This document shows positions 7,319-29,309 of a DNA stretch of 32,000 nucleotides, piece by piece. This stretch comes from Candidatus Saccharimonadota bacterium (lineage in GTDB: Bacteria > Patescibacteriota > Gracilibacteria > BD1-5 > UBA2023), in contig BAAFHK010000001.1 of assembly GCA_042852035.1 (NCBI GenBank), positions 210,001 to 242,000 on the forward strand, in the 5' to 3' direction. Positions within the stretch are counted from its first letter, which is position 1; each line of letters begins with the position of its first letter. The notes beneath the pieces were generated by a model. The model did no database searches. It saw only the letters and a list, made by a program, of their open reading frames with translations, and had not been told where the DNA came from. The translations under genes were made by a program, and so were the position numbers.

Positions 7319-7678
7319 ATGTTTAAAGCCTATCTTACACTTATCACTCCACTTCAATATTTTCTTGTAATCTCTTGAGTGATAATTACAGTTGTGGCCC
7401 TTGCTCTTGCTAAAAGAGAGCGATTTAATGCACTTCATTTTCTCGTATTTCTTGCTGGAGGAGTATGACTTCTTGTGTTCTGATTCTTTCCCGGAATACT
7501 CGATCAGTTTGCTAAATTTGTCTGAGTAGCGAAATGAGCTGATGCACTTGTGTATGGAAGTGTAGTTTTTTTATTCTATTTTTCCCTGCTTTTACTCGCA
7601 AAAATTGAATCTCAACGCGAAGAACTCACTCGATTGGTTCGTGAGCTTGCTCTCCATGATATCCATGCAAAAAAATAA
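7319..7678 (+). CDS. DUF2304-family small membrane protein, 119 aa
   Basis: ATG at 7319, TAA at 7676-7678, with 5 TGA=Gly. It has three hydrophobic helices and a C-terminal ...IESQREELTRLVRELALHD tail. The 3' end overlaps the following GT2 start, the usual DUF2304-GT2 arrangement. Confidence 0.8.
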
Positions 7679-8372
7679 GTTTCTTTTTCTCATCCGTGCC
7701 TACAATGAAAGAACTCGGATAAAGGAGGTTATCGAGAGTATTTTTAATGATGGATTTCATCATATCCTTGTTGTGGATGATGGATCGACAGATGGGACAT
7801 CACAGCTCTTAAATGAAGTATTTCAGGACCAGATTTATCTGGTTAAACATCCGATTAATCGATGATGATGAGCCGCGATGGAAACATGATTTGCTTGGGT
7901 GAGAGAGAATGCCAAAAAATTCGAGATTGAATATGTTGTAACATTTGATGCTGATGGTCAGCATGATATTGCAGACATGAAGACATTTATTCATCATCTT
8001 GATAAACATTCCCATGCTGAGGTAATTTATGGCTCTCGTTTTATCATAAAAACAAATTCAAACGTGCCTTGGTACCGAAAAATGACACTCTATTGAGGCC
8101 GCATATTTACTAAGCTTCTTTCTTGAGTTAAACTGACGGATGCTCATAATGGATATCGACTCTTTCATATTTCAGTTATTGATAAGGTTCGACTCACTAT
8201 GGATGGTATGGAGTATGCGAGTGAACTTATCGAAGAGCTTGTAAAGCAGGGTTATAATATCCATGAAGTTCCCGTAAATATTCACTACGATAGCTATACT
8301 CTTGGAAAAGGACAGCGTTATGGATGAATATTGCGGATAGCGACTCGTATGATTTTTAAGAAATTTTTCTAG
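7656..8372 (+). CDS. GT2-family glycosyltransferase, 238 aa
   Basis: ATG at 7656 (or 7665), TAG at 8370-8372. Motifs: FLIRAYNE, VVDDGSTDGT, HPINR-GGG-AAMETG (three consecutive TGA, 7863-7871), TFDADGQH, AHNGYRL. Confidence 0.9.
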
Positions 8373-8377
8373 GCTCA

Positions 8378-10525
8378 ATGAATAAAAAAATACTTCTCAT
8401 AACCTGATGACTCGGGTATATTGGCTCTCATGCAGTTGTTGCATTTGAGCAAGCAGGATATAAAACAGTCATTATAGATAGCCTTGTTAATAGCTCTCAA
8501 GATGTTCTCAGAGATATAAATAGCATCCTTACATATACTCCGGATTTTTTTGAAATTGATATACGAAATGGCGTAAAGCTTGAAGAGCTTTTTTCGAAAT
8601 ATGAATTTGATGGCGTTATTCATTTTGCCGGACTCAAGGCTTTTTGAGAGAGTACTACCTATCCGTACATGTACTTCGATAATAATGTCACAGGAACCCT
8701 TACGCTCCTTGATATTATGGATCGATTTTGAGTTCATAATATTGTGTTTTCGAGTTCAGCTTCGGTATATGATGCCTCGAATACTCCTCCATTCACCGAG
8801 GATATGCGTTTAGGTACAACGAACCCTTATGCCACGAGTAAACTTAATATTGAGAATATACTTCATGACTATGCGAATCAGAAAGGTTTTCGAGCAGCGA
8901 TACTGCGTTACTTTAATCTTCTTGGTGCGCACCCTTCAGGATTTCTTGGTGACTATCCAAGGGGAAATCATGGAAGTTTGTCATCCAATATATTTGATGT
9001 AGTGTTTTGAAAAAAACTAAAACTCTATATTTATGGTGACGATTTCCCAACCCCTGATGGCACAGCTATTAGAGATTATATAGATGTATGTGATCTTGTT
9101 GATGGTCATCTTCGCGCATATGAATGGGCAGAGGCAGATAAGTGATGAGCTTGGGATGTTTGGAATCTTGGAACAGGGAAGGGTACTTCCGTAAGGGAGC
9201 TTATAACCTCAACAGAAGAAATTATTTGAAAAGAAATCCCTACAGAGACTATTCCAAGAAGGAGTATTGACCTTGCGATACCGATAAGCAACCCAAATAA
9301 GGCACAGAAAGAATTATGATGGATTGCAAAAACCTCCTTAAAAGAAAGTATAGAAAACTCATATAACTTTCTTCGTAGAAAACGCGATCAAATAGGAAAA
9401 AAACAAAAAAAAGTCACACATTTTGTTCCATATTTTCCCCCACATGCTGGATGACTCGAGATGTATGCCAAAGAATGGGCAGAAAATTATGCTTCAAAAT
9501 GATGAGAGATTCTTATAGTAACTTTTTCTCCAGGTCAAAAAAAGATGAAGTCAAGAACTAAAGAATGATATGAAGTAGTAGTTCTTCCAGCGTTTGATGT
9601 CATACATAACTTTCCATTCCCAAAATTTTGGCTCCCTTCTTTTTGGAGTGGGTTAGCAAGAATTAAGGCATTCAAGTCTGAGATTATTCATACGCATACC
9701 AGATTTTTCCTATCAACTCTTCTTGGAGGATTATTTGCAAGGAGGTATCATATCCCTTGGGTACACATTGAGCATGGAAGTGGGTTTGTTGTAACCAATA
9801 AGAGACTCATATCAAAAGTAAGTCGTCTTTATGATAACACTCTTGGGAAATGGTCTCTCCTTCATGCAGATTCTGTTATTGCTGTGAGTGAAGCATGCGA
9901 ACACTTTGTTCGTGATACTTTCGGAGTAAAAAATGTACGAACTATATACCGATGAATTGATCCGAACTTCTGAAAACCAAATCACAGTAAAGAAGAAATA
10001 GTTATTGGATATATAGGAAGGCTTGTGGATCTTAAAGGGGTAAATATTCTTATAGAGGCTTTTGCTCGGATTCTCGAAAAACCAAACTCAAAACAACCAC
10101 TATCGTTAAAAATAGTCGGCGATGGTCCAGAAAGGAAATCCCTCGAGAATTTAGTTCTTGAGCTAAAAATAGAAAAACACGTTGAATTTCTTGGTGTAAA
10201 ACCAGTGGATTTTGTGCGCAAAGAATTCCTTCCTTCACTACACATATTTGTTAATCCGAGTCTTCAAGAGTGACTTCCAACAACCGTTATCGAGGCATTG
10301 GCAGCGCAATGTAGGGTAGTAGCGACGGATGTCTGAGGGACGAGAGAAATTCTTCGATACGCATCTTTTACTCTAGTGGCACCAAAAAACATCCGAGCTC
10401 TCGCTGATGGGATAAATGGCCAAATAGATATCCTTTCATCATCACCAGGCCGAACTCTCCCTGTTTCACTCTTCTCATGGGATCAGACATTCAGAGAGGT
10501 TTGAGAGGTCTATAATACTTTTTAA
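8378..10525 (+). CDS. galE: Fusion protein: UDP-glucose 4-epimerase (GalE, residues ~1-330) + GT4 glycosyltransferase (~343-715), 715 aa
   Basis: A single frame is open from ATG 8378 to TAA 10523-10525 under TGA=Gly. GalE part: [55 protein letters not shown] basic linker [13 protein letters not shown] follows. GT4 part: [18 protein letters not shown]...[13 protein letters not shown]...[32 protein letters not shown]. There is no ATG between the domains. Confidence 0.85.
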
Positions 10526-10542
10526 TGTAAATCTGAGAAACT

Positions 10543-27301: not shown

Positions 27302-27373
27302 ATTAAGTTTTTAAAAAATGATGATGAACAATATTCTATTGTTTTCCTCTTCTTTTTCAATATTCTTCAAAAA

Positions 27374-28504
27374 ATGGAAAAACCAAAAATTGCTATCATC
27401 CATGACGCCTTCCTCTATCGCGGAGGGGGAGAGCGACTCGTGACTCTCATGGCGAAAACACTCAATGCGGATCTTGTGTCATGATTTTTTAGTGAGTGAA
27501 GTTTTGATCCGAGAGAACTCGGATTTAAGGGGAAGATGATCTCTCTCGGGAAGCCTGTGTTTATGAAGGGCGTTCGTCATATGGTCCTCAAATGGAGATT
27601 CTTCTGGCATGCGAAAACTCTCAGGAACTACGATATTGTAATCTTCTCATGAGATTGTCTCGGAGCGTTGAAGCACATGAGGCATGATTCGAAGAAATTA
27701 TACTATTGTCATACTCCACCTAGGTATCTCTATGACTTTAAAGAGCGATATCTCGAGAAGATGCCATGGTATATCCGACCAGTATTCTCTCTTATATTCT
27801 CATTTTTTTCGAAGATCTATGAGAGAAATCTAAGGAAATTCGACGCTATCTACACGAATTCAGAAAATGTAAAAAAGCGACTTCTCGAATATACCTGATT
27901 TCAGTCAGAGATTATCTATCCACCGACTGATACTCATTTTTTTTCTCCCTGAAAGGTACATCTCCCAGAGGAAATACCATTTTCTTCATGAGAATATTTC
28001 TTCTCTTGGGCGAGACTTTCTCCACCAAAAAGAGTTGATCTTGTTATTGATGCATTTCTTGAGCTTCCAGATAGAAAACTTATATTCTCATATGGGGCTA
28101 ATGATCCCCTAAAAGAGCAGATTCTCGAGAAAATTTCCCACTCAGAGAATATTTTCGCTGTTGAGGCACCCAGAGATGATCTTCTCCTGACTCTTATCCG
28201 ATGAGCTATCGCGAGCATATATATACCAGTAGATGAGGATTTTGGTATGTCGCCAGTCGAGAGTATGGCTTGTAGTACACCAGTCATAGGCTCAAAAGAA
28301 TGAGGTATTCTTGAGACTATTATTGATGGAGAGACAGGAAAACTTATTGATATAACGAGTCATGAGCTCGGTATTATACGACTTAAAAATACCATAGTAG
28401 ATACTCCACATGAAGATTGGTTAAGTATGAAGGAGAAATCGAGGCAGCAATCTGAGAAATTTTCTCTTGAAAAATTCCGTCTTCGATTAGAATCATTGCT
28501 ATAA
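27374..28504 (+). CDS. GT4-family glycosyltransferase, 376 aa
   Basis: ATG at 27374, TAA at 28502-28504. Translation MEKPKIAIIHDAFLYRGGGERLV...LYYCHTPPRYLYD...YIPVDEDFGMSPVESMACSTPVIGSKEGGILETIIDGETGKLI. It has the same architecture and length as 25328..26458. Confidence 0.88.
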
Positions 28505-28505
28505 T

Positions 28506-29309
28506 ATGAGAATTTTATGACTTAACATCCATGAAGGAAAGTATAGAGATTTTTTGGAATACATTCGTCACCCACTTCAACCAACTCTTGTTTTTACTCC
28601 AAATCCAGAAATACTTGTGAAGGCATCCAGTGATAGTGATTTTTATAATACACTTAAGAAGGCCGATTTTCTTATTCCTGATGCAAATGGACTCTATACG
28701 GCAACTCTTATTCAAGAAGGTGCTTCGTATATTGGAGCTCTTTTTCGAACCTTTTTTCTAAAACGGAACCTCTCTAAGAGATATGGTGAGCTTATGCGCT
28801 GAAGTACTCTTACGAAGGATCTTGTAGATTTTGCTTGTGATAGTGGCGAGAGTGTACTTATGATAGATAACTATAGAATTCACAAACCGAAAAATTCTTT
28901 TGAAGAAAGAAAAATGCAAGTACAAGCCGAGCTTTCCGAGCGGTTTCAAAAAAAATTTCCAAAACTAATGATTGAGATTCTCTTTGACTGAGAGAAAACC
29001 CCAGAACAAATAGCTCAATTAATTCAGGATAAAGATATTCGATACGTTTTTTCTTGTATCTGAATGAAGGCGCAAGAAGTTCGCTTGACTGAAATATTTT
29101 CACATATTCCTGATTCATGCAAAGTATTGGGAATATGAGTTTGATCCTCTTTTGACTATCTTCTTGGGCTCCAAAAAAGAGCCCCAGTAATCTTTCAGAA
29201 AGCCTGACTCGAATGGTTTTATAGACTTCTTCAGGATCCATTTGTGAGATGGGAGCGCATTAAGAGGGCATTAGTAGATTTTCCTCGATTGGTTGAACAA
29301 TCAAAATAA
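28506..29309 (+). CDS. WecB/TagA/CpsF-family (GT26) glycosyltransferase, 267 aa
   Basis: ATG at 28506, TAA at 29307-29309. Translation ...VFTPNPEILV...ADFLIPDANGL...FSCIGMKAQE...GIGVGSSFDYLLGLQKRAPVIFQKAGLEWFYRLLQDPFVRWER. Confidence 0.9.

Follow-up and report, generated by a model that had tools for sequence, protein, structure and literature searches.

A modular surface-glycan locus with a TagA-like core and a predicted GT-C-fold transferase in the small genome of HHAS10

How does a parasitic bacterium with a genome of 1.30 Mb (HHAS10, class JAEDAM01) assemble a surface glycan from a locus which is rich in glycosyltransferases and has no recognisable gene to start or export the chain? The question is raised by a 22 kb cluster at positions 7319–29309 of the window, which is the whole stretch of 32,000 nucleotides analysed; it takes up about 1.7% of the genome. 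We find this locus less puzzling than a preliminary description had held, and the earlier interpretation partly right: two of the three membrane proteins left there as uncharacterised, whose coordinates agree exactly with ours, look like parts of a known extracellular sugar-adding machine.

The gene map was read with code 25 (UGA = Gly), already published for the MAG HHAS10 (PMC11393006). With table 11 the open reading frames of at least 100 aa add up to 4,789 aa, the longest being 304; when UGA is read as a sense codon the total is 22,539 aa and the longest 721. In the table-25 map the cluster has 24 genes, numbered G11 to G34, instead of the 25 counted before. Their tight packing had been correctly described: the widest intergenic spaces are 120 nt (25208–25327), 72 nt (27302–27373, divergent) and 60 nt, the others being 19 nt at most or overlaps. 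The suggested comparison with the flanks gives a lower GC content in the locus (35.9% vs 39.2%, p = 0.002) and the same GC3 (0.307 vs 0.303), so there is no sign of foreign origin.

Families were assigned from Pfam and NCBIfam HMM matches of the locus proteins. These are DUF2304, two GT2, six GT4 (Glycos_transf_1), one GT26, one sub-threshold GT-B-like protein, a GalE domain fused to a GT4, four SAM methyltransferases, PIG-L, WbqC and GtrA. The earlier list is thus recovered. The GT-B-like protein falls below threshold (21.8 vs 26.4 bits), the FemAB-like and HprK-like calls have weak matches (E 1e-5; 34 bits vs a cut-off of 200), and the nucleotidyltransferase has no HMM support, a G-x-SDIDLL motif seen by eye being its sole basis.

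The locus is modular. Its GT4-GT4-TagA core, its GT-C module and a third, variable block for tailoring differ in depth of conservation and have separate genomic neighbourhoods in distant relatives. A composite cell-envelope glycan cluster of three modules is the reading we prefer, with somewhat more confidence than doubt. As the modules differ in this way, the single glycan proposed before is not established. The core and its neighbours are the following:

G31: 25328–26458, minus strand, GT4 of the conserved core (Glycos_transf_1, 74.8 bits)
G32: 26471–27301, minus strand, secreted or anchored protein of no family, with an N-terminal hydrophobic segment
G33: 27374–28504, plus strand, GT4 of the conserved core (Glycos_transf_1, 60.7 bits)
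G34: 28506–29309, plus strand, GT26 TagA/TarA-like transferase (PF03808, 82 bits)
G35: 29314–30108, minus strand, HAD-IIB/Cof-type phosphatase (Hydrolase_3, 79.5 bits)

Orthologues of G31 and G33 are found in loci L011–L014 (66–77% and 55–78% identity, respectively). TagA abuts ispG in L011 and L012, and a gap of only 162 nt separates them in L014. The core is lineage-wide and keeps the same place in the chromosome, next to ispG. G35, which separates ispG from the TagA-like gene in this genome only among the sampled relatives, is possibly an accessory sugar-phosphate phosphatase (TIGR01484, 66.6 bits, over the cut-off of 41.8). G32 is not conserved, its position being occupied by unrelated small ORFs in the relatives; it has no Pfam, NCBIfam or PDB match.

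G34 also matches TarA (NF041710, 74 bits) and PDB 7mpk (E 3e-14). Its residues T31, N33, D59, Q190, E191, R240, R248 and R251 align with T37, N39, D65, Q167, E168, R214, R221 and R224 of TagA: the catalytic Asp, the Thr/Asn/Gln/Glu pocket residues and three arginines of the C-terminal appendage are kept. Their conservation argues for a diphosphate-linked acceptor. Since the catalytic residues are kept, the gene for an initiator of WecA/TagO type probably lies in another part of the 1.3 Mb genome; G31, G33 and G34 would extend in the cytoplasm the polyprenyl-diphosphate-linked primer that this initiator makes, probably GlcNAc-PP-polyprenol.

The absence of an initiator and an exporter, as noted before, holds: none of the 24 locus proteins matches PF00953, PF02397 or the Wzx, Wzy, Wzz and ABC families at E <= 0.01. 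Nor are canonical genes for a phosphoglycosyl transferase (PGT), Wzx, Wzy, Wzz or ABC found within 10 kb on either side of 12 related loci, with the exception of L006. There, a Polysacc_synt gene and an MraY gene occur at a distance of three genes, TilS and RNHCP being among those in between; both are probable peptidoglycan or housekeeping genes. The window and the 10 kb on each side of the related loci contain no LCP ligase. As none of these genes is found in the window or the sampled loci, the main-chain route, its exporter included, would rest on genes beyond them, a point against the reading we prefer.

The membrane steps which can be recognised begin with two pairs of genes:

G11: 7319–7678, plus strand, small DUF2304 membrane protein, GacJ/Rv3632-like GT2 partner (PF10066, 80.1 bits), about three hydrophobic segments predicted
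G12: 7656–8372, plus strand, soluble GT2, PpgS-like polyprenyl-phosphate-sugar synthase (PF00535, 84 bits)
G28: 23033–23752, minus strand, soluble GT2 of polyprenyl-phosphate-hexose synthase type, AglJ/ArnC/PgfS-like (PF00535, 113 bits)
G29: 23742–24119, minus strand, GtrA-family protein with 4 TM segments (PF04138, 79.7 bits)

DUF2304+GT2 (GacJ/GacI-like, PpgS-like) and GtrA+GT2 belong to the recognised polyprenyl-phosphate-sugar synthase modules. G12 matches PpgS (NF058614) over its full length (residues 5–209 of 226) with 163 bits, under the cut-off of 370, and AglJ is its second-best NCBIfam match. For G28 the best is AglJ (92.6 bits), followed by ArnC and PgfS, every one under its cut-off. 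As all GT2 and TagA-like matches are below the equivalog cut-offs, we leave the sugar specificities of these enzymes unassigned. No TM segments are predicted in G12 or G28. The genes for G28 and G29 overlap, and G29 is proposed to be a flippase and/or the membrane partner of G28; a plus-strand ORF over G29 (23727–24137) is spurious. Each pair would load single sugars onto polyprenyl monophosphate. There are two such pairs for a single GT-C gene in the locus, which counts against the proposed scheme.

The remaining membrane proteins belong to the GT-C module:

G26 (HHAS10_02390): 20957–22369, minus strand, polytopic glycosyltransferase of predicted GT-C fold, with about 11–13 predicted TM segments and no extracytoplasmic domain
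G27: 22388–23020, minus strand, SAM methyltransferase accompanying the module (Methyltransf_11, 72 bits)
G30 (HHAS10_02430): 24119–25207, minus strand, membrane-anchored CBM-like protein (AF2 pLDDT 82.6)

These membrane steps had been considered unrecognisable. The structure predictions that had been suggested give a GT-C fold for G26 and a CBM-like one for G30. In the AF2 model of G26 (pLDDT 74, pTM 0.82; below 50 in the putative catalytic loop) the best eight Foldseek matches in the PDB are all GT-C enzymes (STT3, AglB, PglB, ALG9; probability 0.93–1.0), with weak E-values of 0.03–0.6; none of the MOP, Wzy, WaaL or SEDS structures has a score in this search. Among 1.84e9 proteins the family profile reaches, at E 6e-12 to 1e-7, distant ones in which Pfam PMT_2 exceeds its cut-off. 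D137 and D143 are invariant and lie in a loop predicted to be outside by the positive-inside rule. Model and profile thus indicate that G26 is a GT-C-fold transferase. After flipping, it would move the sugar onto the glycan at the outer face.

The AF2 model of G30 combines a CBM-like beta-sandwich on the extracytoplasmic side with a TM hairpin and, at the C-terminus, an alpha/beta domain; its Foldseek matches include CBM6, CBM29 and CBM16 (E as low as 5e-5, TMt about 0.5). Leaving out L004 and L005, which stop at a contig edge, G30 and the G26 homologue are no more than about 1 kb apart in all eight distinct relatives where the latter is clear (37–72% identity). The two are directly adjacent in four distant loci; methyltransferase or GtrA-GT2-methyltransferase genes separate them in L006, L007 and L008. 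L011 has a ninth, divergent pair of the same order and architecture, in which the similarity of the G30-like ORF is statistically weak (hhalign E 0.013). It has been predicted in a review that small GT-C enzymes may depend on a second, acceptor-binding protein (PMC8035078). We propose that G30 is such a partner and infer that it gives G26 the carbohydrate-binding extracytoplasmic domain that it lacks.

The module might instead glycosylate a protein, such as an SLH-domain S-layer protein or a pilin, in place of a wall polysaccharide, in the manner of the Ppm1/Pmt O-mannosylation of actinobacteria; the remaining locus would then make a separate glycan. We consider this unlikely. PMT_2 is named for protein O-mannosyltransferases, the best folds of G26 are protein oligosaccharyltransferases, in four distant relatives an SLH-domain gene precedes the G30-G26 pair by about 5 kb, and HHAS10 carries a conserved SLH S-layer protein (PMC9530719). 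However, the CBM-like domain of G30 suggests a glycan acceptor, PMT_2 also includes ArnT-type and wall-polymer GT-C enzymes (PMC8035078, Table 2), the SLH Pfam matches are faint and the SLH gene is outside this window.

A very improbable alternative is a route like the archaeal Agl glycosylation, in which the whole glycan is built on polyprenyl monophosphate. G12 or the AglJ-like G28 would set the first sugar, GT4s and methyltransferases would build and tailor the chain, GtrA or DUF2304 would aid flipping, and G26 with G30 would transfer the entire glycan; PGT, Wzx, Wzy and ABC exporter would then all be dispensable. We know of no bacterium which uses such a route. The AglJ matches agree with it, as do the similarity of G26 to STT3, AglB and PglB and the related loci devoid of PGT or exporter. 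G30-G26-GtrA is also the only membrane machinery consistently beside variable glycosyltransferase sets in the loci sampled across the lineage. On the other hand, the arginines kept in G34 are those proposed in TagA to contact phosphate and diphosphate groups of the substrates, two marks of oligosaccharyltransferases, a soluble domain at the C-terminus and the STT3 signature in Pfam, are missing from G26, and its remote sequence link is to PMT_2, a family of single-sugar transferases.

In the composite cluster that we prefer, strain-specific sugars would be supplied and tailored by the variable block:

G13: 8378–10525, plus strand, fusion of GalE (UDP-hexose 4-epimerase; residues 6–336, TIGR01179, 345.6 bits, over the 262.3 equivalog cut-off) and GT4 (residues 358–680, Glycos_transf_1 and Glyco_transf_4)
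G14: 10543–11217, plus strand, SAM methyltransferase (Methyltransf_31/11/25)
G15: 11220–11876, plus strand, FemAB/GNAT-like acyl or aminoacyl transferase, weak (PF02388, E 1e-5; also PF13480 and TIGR03019, E 1.6e-4)
G16: 11878–12927, plus strand, GT4 (Glycos_transf_1, 60 bits)
G17: 12937–13635, plus strand, SAM methyltransferase (Methyltransf_25/11, about 70 bits)
G18: 13626–14735, plus strand, divergent GT4 (Glycos_transf_1, 34 bits)
G19: 14742–15767, plus strand, P-loop protein, kinase-like, distantly related to HprK (TIGR04352, 33.8 bits, cut-off 200, P-loop region alone)
G20: 15770–16753, plus strand, possible minimal nucleotidyltransferase motif (G..SDIDLL, read from the sequence)
G21: 16741–17826, plus strand, GT-B-like protein (Glycos_transf_1, 21.8 bits, under the 26.4 cut-off)
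G22: 17846–18514, plus strand, SAM methyltransferase (Methyltransf_11, 46.5 bits)
G23: 18575–19189, plus strand, PIG-L/LmbE-family de-N-acetylase (PF02585, 89.7 bits; BshB1-like, 90 bits, below cut-off)
G24: 19143–19865, plus strand, WbqC-family protein (PF08889, 238.9 bits), true start probably at 19191
G25: 19855–20955, minus strand, GT4 (Glycos_transf_1, 97.8 bits, and Glyco_transf_4)

G16 likely starts at 11878 (MQKKF...) and not at 11806, because G15 ends just before. None of the 11 Gly codons of G15 is UGA. G19 has no PDB sequence match; G20 has no Pfam, NCBIfam or PDB match.

The synteny comparison that had been suggested shows a lineage-wide core, a variable tailoring block and modules which part in distant relatives: there, dnaG, tsaE and heptose genes are found near G30-G26-GtrA, which is away from TagA-ispG. 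Such separation would agree with a chance assembly in 22 kb of unrelated pathways that share no product, for example a linkage-unit core, a Gtr-type system for decoration, a set for amino-sugar tailoring and a kinase/NTase pair; we regard this as quite unlikely. The limited distribution of some genes points the same way: G19 and G20 are confined to the closest relative (the G20 orthologue, 54% identical, is in L004 only), and among the sampled genomes G15 and G35 occur in this one alone. Nevertheless multi-gene blocks are intact in the loci with 50–72% identity in G26: G16-G29 in L004, G12-G30-G26-G13-G25-G16-G18-G21-G24 in L007, and G16/G21-G24/G30-G28 in L006 and L008. In these four loci G21 is conserved and G27 orthologues adjoin the G26 homologues; G24 adjoins the PIG-L gene in L004, L006 and L007, with one inserted gene in L008, and the G18 orthologue of L004 is 76% identical. 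Furthermore L011 joins G31/G33/G34 directly to a GT2-GtrA-GT-C module, and all genes of the 22 kb are glycan-related and tightly packed.

The composite cluster has counterparts in known systems, and the earlier view of a route outside known paradigms is not supported. GacJ and Rv3632 are DUF2304 proteins which stimulate each its own GT2, and the order of G11 and G12 is the same as in PpgS/Rv3632 and GacI/GacJ. With G26 and G30, the two synthase pairs would make up a system of a known type, called "multi-component transmembrane glycosylation". An initiator away from its cluster is also normal: in streptococci gacO is located apart from gacA-L, and we suppose the same arrangement here.

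The surface-glycan gene cluster at 7319–29309 contains 24 genes (G11 to G34) in our table-25 map, instead of the 25 of the preliminary description. Genes G11–G24 are found on the plus strand, G25–G32 on the minus strand and G33–G34 again on the plus strand. The largest intergenic gaps have 120, 72 and 60 nt; all other genes are separated by 19 nt or less, or overlap. Searches in Pfam and NCBIfam confirmed the families already described: a DUF2304 protein, two small GT2, six GT4 and one GT26 glycosyltransferases, four SAM methyltransferases, and PIG-L, WbqC and GtrA proteins. A GT-B-like protein scores below threshold. 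One of the six GT4 is fused to a GalE domain (G13): its residues 6–336 give 345.6 bits with TIGR01179, above the equivalog cut-off of 262.3, and are a bona fide GalE (UDP-glucose 4-epimerase) domain. The FemAB/GNAT-type (G15) and HprK-like (G19) proteins do have the expected matches, which are weak; the nucleotidyltransferase (G20) was assigned only from a motif visible in its sequence and has no model support. The cluster as first described is genuine, and its gene content was listed correctly. G19, with an HprK-related P-loop, and G20, with a minimal nucleotidyltransferase-like motif, form a gene pair at 14742–16753 (plus strand), which is kept only in the closest relative (locus L004, 8200–10281). 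Sequence searches in the PDB gave no significant match to G19, G20, G21 or G32, nor to the profiles of G26 and G30. Relaxing the Pfam threshold to E ≤ 5 for G19, G20, G26, G30 and G32 added nothing new, and a literature search on WbqC was uninformative.

All genes in the window were called with table 25. With this table the ORFs of 100 aa or more add up to 22,539 aa, and with table 11 to 4,789 aa; the window is intelligible only if UGA is a sense codon. All 37 ORFs of the window end with TAA (31) or TAG (6). The sequence comes from the MAG HHAS10, which carries the NCBI annotation 'Candidatus Altimarinota bacterium'. This organism belongs to class JAEDAM01, earlier assigned to Gracilibacteria; its cells are found inside Zoogloea clusters in activated sludge, it has been read as a Zoogloea episymbiont and it reads UGA as glycine (PMC11393006). 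Its genome of 1.30 Mb (3 contigs, 1,175 genes) is 97.7% complete and encodes an S-layer protein with an SLH domain (PMC9530719). The locus is discussed in neither PMC11393006 nor PMC9530719, and the word 'glycosyltransferase' is absent from both; the supplements of the HHAS10 paper mention neither undecaprenyl, flippase, teichoic nor glycosyltransferase.

Of the glycine codons, 37% are UGA within the locus, as compared with 30% in the genes which flank it. The GC content of the locus is lower than that of its flanks (35.9% vs 39.2%, p = 0.002), whereas GC3 is the same (0.307 vs 0.303). Since GC3 is equal, the lower GC reflects protein composition and not a foreign origin; a horizontal transfer of the locus is unsupported. 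A separate observation concerns G15 (11220–11876, plus strand), in which none of the 11 glycine codons is UGA, as compared with the locus average; the chance of this is about 0.006 before correction for multiple tests. A homologue of G15 is missing from the sampled relatives, and the gene may be a recent acquisition from an organism with the standard code. Upstream of the locus, the ORFs at 328–777, 2330–2617 and 4079–4330 (G01, G05 and G07) match no family and are apparently spurious, and the metK ORF (G06) has an N-terminal extension of 47 residues (2731–2871) which is probably untranslated. Intergenic stretches of about 250–320 nt remain at 2618–2871 and 4027–4342, with no Rfam or tRNA match; scans of the whole window with Rfam and for tRNA gave no match either.

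The preliminary description recognised no initiating transferase, flippase, polymerase or exporter, and this stands for the 24 proteins of the locus: at E ≤ 0.01 none of them matches phosphoglycosyl transferase (PGT; PF00953, PF02397), Wzx (PF01943, PF13440), Wzy (PF04932) or Wzz (PF02706) models, nor is there a match to the ABC models PF00005 and PF01061. The sole P-loop protein, G19, weakly matches kinase-type models. None of the three uncharacterised candidates for membrane steps (G26, G30 and G32) is a Wzx, Wzy or ABC protein. The further statement that the assembly route is not obvious from known paradigms was overstated: two of these three proteins, together with both small GT2 pairs, fit a well-described scheme of extracytoplasmic glycosylation. 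The third one, G32 (26471–27301), is either secreted or anchored; it has no detectable relatives, and other genomes do not conserve it at this position. The two proteins which fit the scheme, both encoded on a contig of 750 kb, are:

20957–22369, minus strand: G26 (HHAS10_02390), GT-C fold match with a PMT_2-linked profile

24119–25207, minus strand: G30 (HHAS10_02430), structure model with a CBM-like fold

G26 has about 11–13 TM helices and belongs to a small, lineage-restricted family (15 clusters at 90% identity). Its AlphaFold model, obtained from the family alignment, has a pLDDT of 74 and a pTM of 0.82. The best eight Foldseek matches in the PDB are all GT-C enzymes, including yeast STT3, archaeal AglB, PglB and human ALG9; AftA comes at rank 20. 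These GT-C matches have probabilities of 0.93–1.0 and TMq values of 0.32–0.47, with weak E-values (0.03–0.6). No flippase (MOP), WaaL or SEDS fold appears above noise in this search, and a comparison with viral structures found uncharacterised proteins only. As independent evidence from sequence, the family profile gave 241 matches at E ≤ 1e-3 among 1.84 billion representatives, and several distant ones (E 6e-12 to 1e-7) bear Pfam PMT_2 above cut-off. PMT_2 is not detected in G26 by direct Pfam search, which gives no match even at E ≤ 5. The model and the PMT_2-bearing matches indicate that G26 is a polytopic glycosyltransferase with the GT-C fold. Its loop 131–194, modelled at pLDDT < 50, contains the invariant residues D137, D143, D158 and D179, candidates for a DxD-like acidic motif, and is placed outside the cell by the positive-inside rule. 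The likeness to STT3, PglB and AglB is found at the fold level only: the chain of G26 stops at residue 470, just behind the last TM helix, and has no soluble domain. It has neither the C-terminal soluble domain with a WWDYG-type motif nor the match to STT3 models expected of an oligosaccharyltransferase.

The two small GT2 have different closest models. G12 gives 84 bits with PF00535 and 163 bits over its full length with the PpgS model; G28 gives 113 bits with PF00535, and its closest models are AglJ, ArnC and PgfS. All these scores are below the equivalog cut-offs, so they support a polyprenyl-phosphate-sugar synthase type and do not define the sugar. G28 has no TM helices. Each GT2 is found beside a small membrane protein: G28 is overlapped by 11 nt by the GtrA gene (G29, PF04138, 79.7 bits), and G12 by 23 nt by the DUF2304 gene (G11, PF10066, 80.1 bits). 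The locus contains the three components of multi-component transmembrane glycosylation, namely a GT2, an adjacent small membrane protein and a GT-C. This predicted set would form a polyprenyl-phosphate sugar and then transfer the sugar outside the membrane.

G30 belongs to a family of 34 clusters with the same taxonomic range as the G26 family and no Pfam match. Its model (pLDDT 82.6) has a signal or anchor helix, a beta-sandwich at residues 28–138, a TM hairpin and a C-terminal alpha/beta domain. In Foldseek the beta-sandwich resembles CBM6, CBM29, CBM16, CBM61 and a porphyran-binding CBM, with a best E-value of 5e-5 and TM-scores of about 0.5 against CBM targets of about 130 residues. In a review of Gram-positive wall glycosylation it was speculated that binding of the acceptor polymer may require a further protein beside a small GT-C enzyme (PMC8035078). 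G30 fits this idea of a separate acceptor-binding protein by its CBM-like fold and by its near-obligate linkage with G26, and we infer a partnership of G26 and G30. They would form a testable two-protein GT-C, with a catalytic membrane subunit and a separate carbohydrate-binding subunit. We know of no demonstration of such a split arrangement; it is one of the points which stay of interest.

We have compared with the window proteins, in table-25 translation, ten loci of relatives around G26 homologues (8 of them distinct) and four around G34 homologues. Three modules are apparent: a conserved core, a variable tailoring block, and a GT-C module which in part of the relatives is found elsewhere. 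The core, module A, is formed by two GT4 (G31 and G33) and the TagA-like G34, and is 53–78% identical in four relatives. In three of them (L011, L012 and L014) it is found directly beside ispG, which is 80–89% identical; L013 has no ispG within 10 kb after module A. The glycosyltransferases upstream of module A differ in each genome: WbsX-like, GT10/GT11-like and assorted GT2. Module B contains G30, G26 and GtrA; in most cases the methyltransferase G27 and the small GT2 G28 accompany them. Homologues of G30 and G26 are at most about 1 kb apart in all 8 distinct loci with a clear G26 homologue (37–72% identity), and are immediate neighbours in the four distant loci; the L004 and L005 contigs end before the expected position of G30. 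In L011 the GT-C is very divergent (23% identity to G26) and keeps the loop motif; the ORF next to it has the architecture and motifs of G30, with weak profile support (hhalign E 0.013). The tailoring block G13–G25, module C, is kept only in the closer relatives L004 and L007, and partly in L006 and L008.

In the most distant relatives module B is found elsewhere, near dnaG and tsaE, beside heptose-pathway and GT9 genes. Four loci (L001, L002, L009 and L010) have a gene for a protein with a faint SLH match (at about 3.7–5.3 kb), some 5 kb upstream of G30-G26-GtrA. In the same four loci module B is followed by a SIS/GmhA-like gene, PfkB, two GT9 heptosyltransferase-like genes and a radical SAM gene. 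These genes are unexpected in bacteria which are thought to lack an outer membrane. L008 has a CsaB-like polysaccharide pyruvyl transferase (PF04230, 3355–4389); no gene of this type is found in the window. The ligand of SLH domains in Gram-positive SCWPs is pyruvylated ManNAc. Gene fusions also recur: GalE-GT4 in the window (8378–10525), epimerase-GT2 in L013 (2346–4190) and GT4-GT4 in L007 (5738–7933), where the GalE part is a separate gene.

The sequence comparison gives a layout like that of an O-antigen or capsule locus, with a fixed, conserved GT4-GT4-TagA core beside ispG and an adjacent variable GT cassette. Such a layout suggests that the surface is under diversifying selection, and the anchoring of the variable cassette beside ispG stays of interest. 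As organisms attached to host cells, Patescibacteria probably contact both host and phages through the glycans of their envelope; to our knowledge almost nothing is known of how these glycans are built. The region from the TagA-like gene through ispG (GcpE) covers 28506–31452. IspG is the penultimate enzyme of the MEP pathway, which provides isoprenoid precursors and hence the polyprenyl carrier. In this genome only, a gene for a HAD-IIB/Cof-type phosphatase (29314–30108, minus strand) stands between both genes and may have an accessory role as a sugar-phosphate phosphatase. The TagA-like gene abuts ispG in L011 and L012, and in L014 the gap is 162 nt. Another Gracilibacterium was reported to have no MEP pathway (10.1101/595074).

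The TagA-like enzyme bears on the missing initiator. G34 scores 82 bits with PF03808, the model of the GT26 family WecG/TagA/CpsF (cut-off 27.4), 67.2 bits with TIGR00696, just below its cut-off of 69, and 74 bits with TarA, far below 350. It matches TagA of Thermoanaerobacter italicus (7mpk_A) with E 3e-14 in HMMER. Residues T31, N33, D59, Q190 and E191 align with T37, N39, D65, Q167 and E168 of TagA, and R240, R248 and R251 with R214, R221 and R224 of its C-terminal appendage; the roles of the TagA residues, including the proposed catalytic base D65, have been described (PMC6493773). When genome contigs were scanned with G34, the matches were Firmicute TagA genes apart from a single Gracilibacteria locus, and more than 220 homologues of the TagA-like protein alone have 38–75% identity. 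Conservation of the TagA residues argues that G34 would act on a polyprenyl-diphosphate-linked acceptor, such as polyprenyl-PP-GlcNAc, and, in turn, that an initiator of the WecA/TagO type should exist. The absence of an initiator from the cluster is ordinary: wecA stands apart from O-antigen clusters, and so does tagO from its own. In Streptococcus pyogenes gacO is also encoded apart from gacA-L (10.1101/180810).

No recognisable PGT, Wzy or ABC exporter is found in any of the related loci compared. The PF00953 gene of L006 was rejected as the missing initiator, since its motif KVGTPTMGG is that of MraY, a peptidoglycan gene. A Polysacc_synt gene of the same locus is ambiguous as a flippase; it is separated from the PF00953 gene by the TilS and RNHCP genes and adjoins a UDP-sugar dehydrogenase on the glycan side. 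An exporter was recognised neither in the locus nor in the related loci, and this gap stays of interest.

There is a slim chance that the UGA-recoded Patescibacteria (JAEDAM01, Gracilibacteria and Absconditabacteria) make these glycans by an archaeal-style route with no PGT, Wzx, Wzy or ABC exporter. An AglJ-like GT2 would start the chain on polyprenyl monophosphate, soluble GT4 and methyltransferases would complete it, and a lineage-specific split enzyme of G26 plus G30, aided by GtrA, would then pass the complete glycan en bloc to the wall or the S-layer. The lead is a resemblance to N-glycosylation in Haloferax volcanii, whose Agl set includes AglJ, AglG/I/E, the methyltransferase AglP and AglB: here there are also AglJ-like GT2, several soluble glycosyltransferases and SAM methyltransferases, and AglB/STT3 are the best fold matches of G26. 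However G26 has neither the C-terminal domain nor the Pfam signature of AglB, and G34 is a TagA-like enzyme of the diphosphate type. If the genome really encoded neither initiator nor exporter, such an assembly would be without precedent among bacteria.

The TagO/TagA synthesis of linkage units for wall teichoic acid and SCWP in Gram-positive bacteria is a parallel for the core. G34 belongs to PF03808, keeps the catalytic residues and C-terminal appendage of TagA, and has its closest non-CPR relatives in Firmicutes. It differs by an identity of only 25–32% with Firmicute TagA, by an insertion of about 30 residues between aligned stretches (69–140 in G34, 75–114 in TagA), and by the absence from the window of TagO, TagB/F, TagGH, LCP ligase and CsaB genes.

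For the GT2 pairs and G26, multi-component glycosylation has several well-described relatives. For the side chain of the group A carbohydrate of S. pyogenes, GlcNAc-P-undecaprenol is made by the GT2 GacI, to which the DUF2304 protein GacJ binds with a stimulating effect, and the GT-C GacL moves this sugar onto the wall polysaccharide; Rv3632 and PpgS were noted to behave likewise (Rush et al., 10.1101/180810). G12 and G11 repeat the pairing of a soluble GT2 with DUF2304, G26 is also a polytopic GT-C in the same cluster, and the initiator, there the WecA homologue GacO, is not in the cluster in either case. The differences are a GtrA protein in place of the Wzx-type GacK, no equivalent of the ABC exporter GacD/GacE, no rhamnose genes, a GT-C which is not PMT_2 by direct Pfam search, and the separate CBM-like partner G30. 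In Mycobacterium tuberculosis a DUF2304 gene (Rv3632) is found directly upstream of the GT2, as G11 is before G12. PpgS (Rv3631), the mycobacterial polyprenyl-phospho-GalNAc synthase, is the best curated match of G12, with its 163 bits well under the equivalog cut-off of 370. The acceptor polymer of the PpgS/Rv3632/Rv3779 system is different. Rv3779 is the GT-C in the GalN decoration of arabinogalactan. In the Gtr and CsbB-GtcA-YfhO systems, which decorate O-antigen, LTA, WTA and SCWP, a GT2, a GtrA protein and a GT-C are co-encoded, as G28, G29 and G26 are here. GT-C of low similarity are recognised in such systems mainly by structure (PMC8035078), a trait which G26 shares. The locus differs from them in that G28 lacks the TM helices which GtrB/CsbB have at the C-terminus, the GT-C subfamily of G26 is restricted to this lineage, and a near-obligate CBM-like partner and a methyltransferase travel with it.
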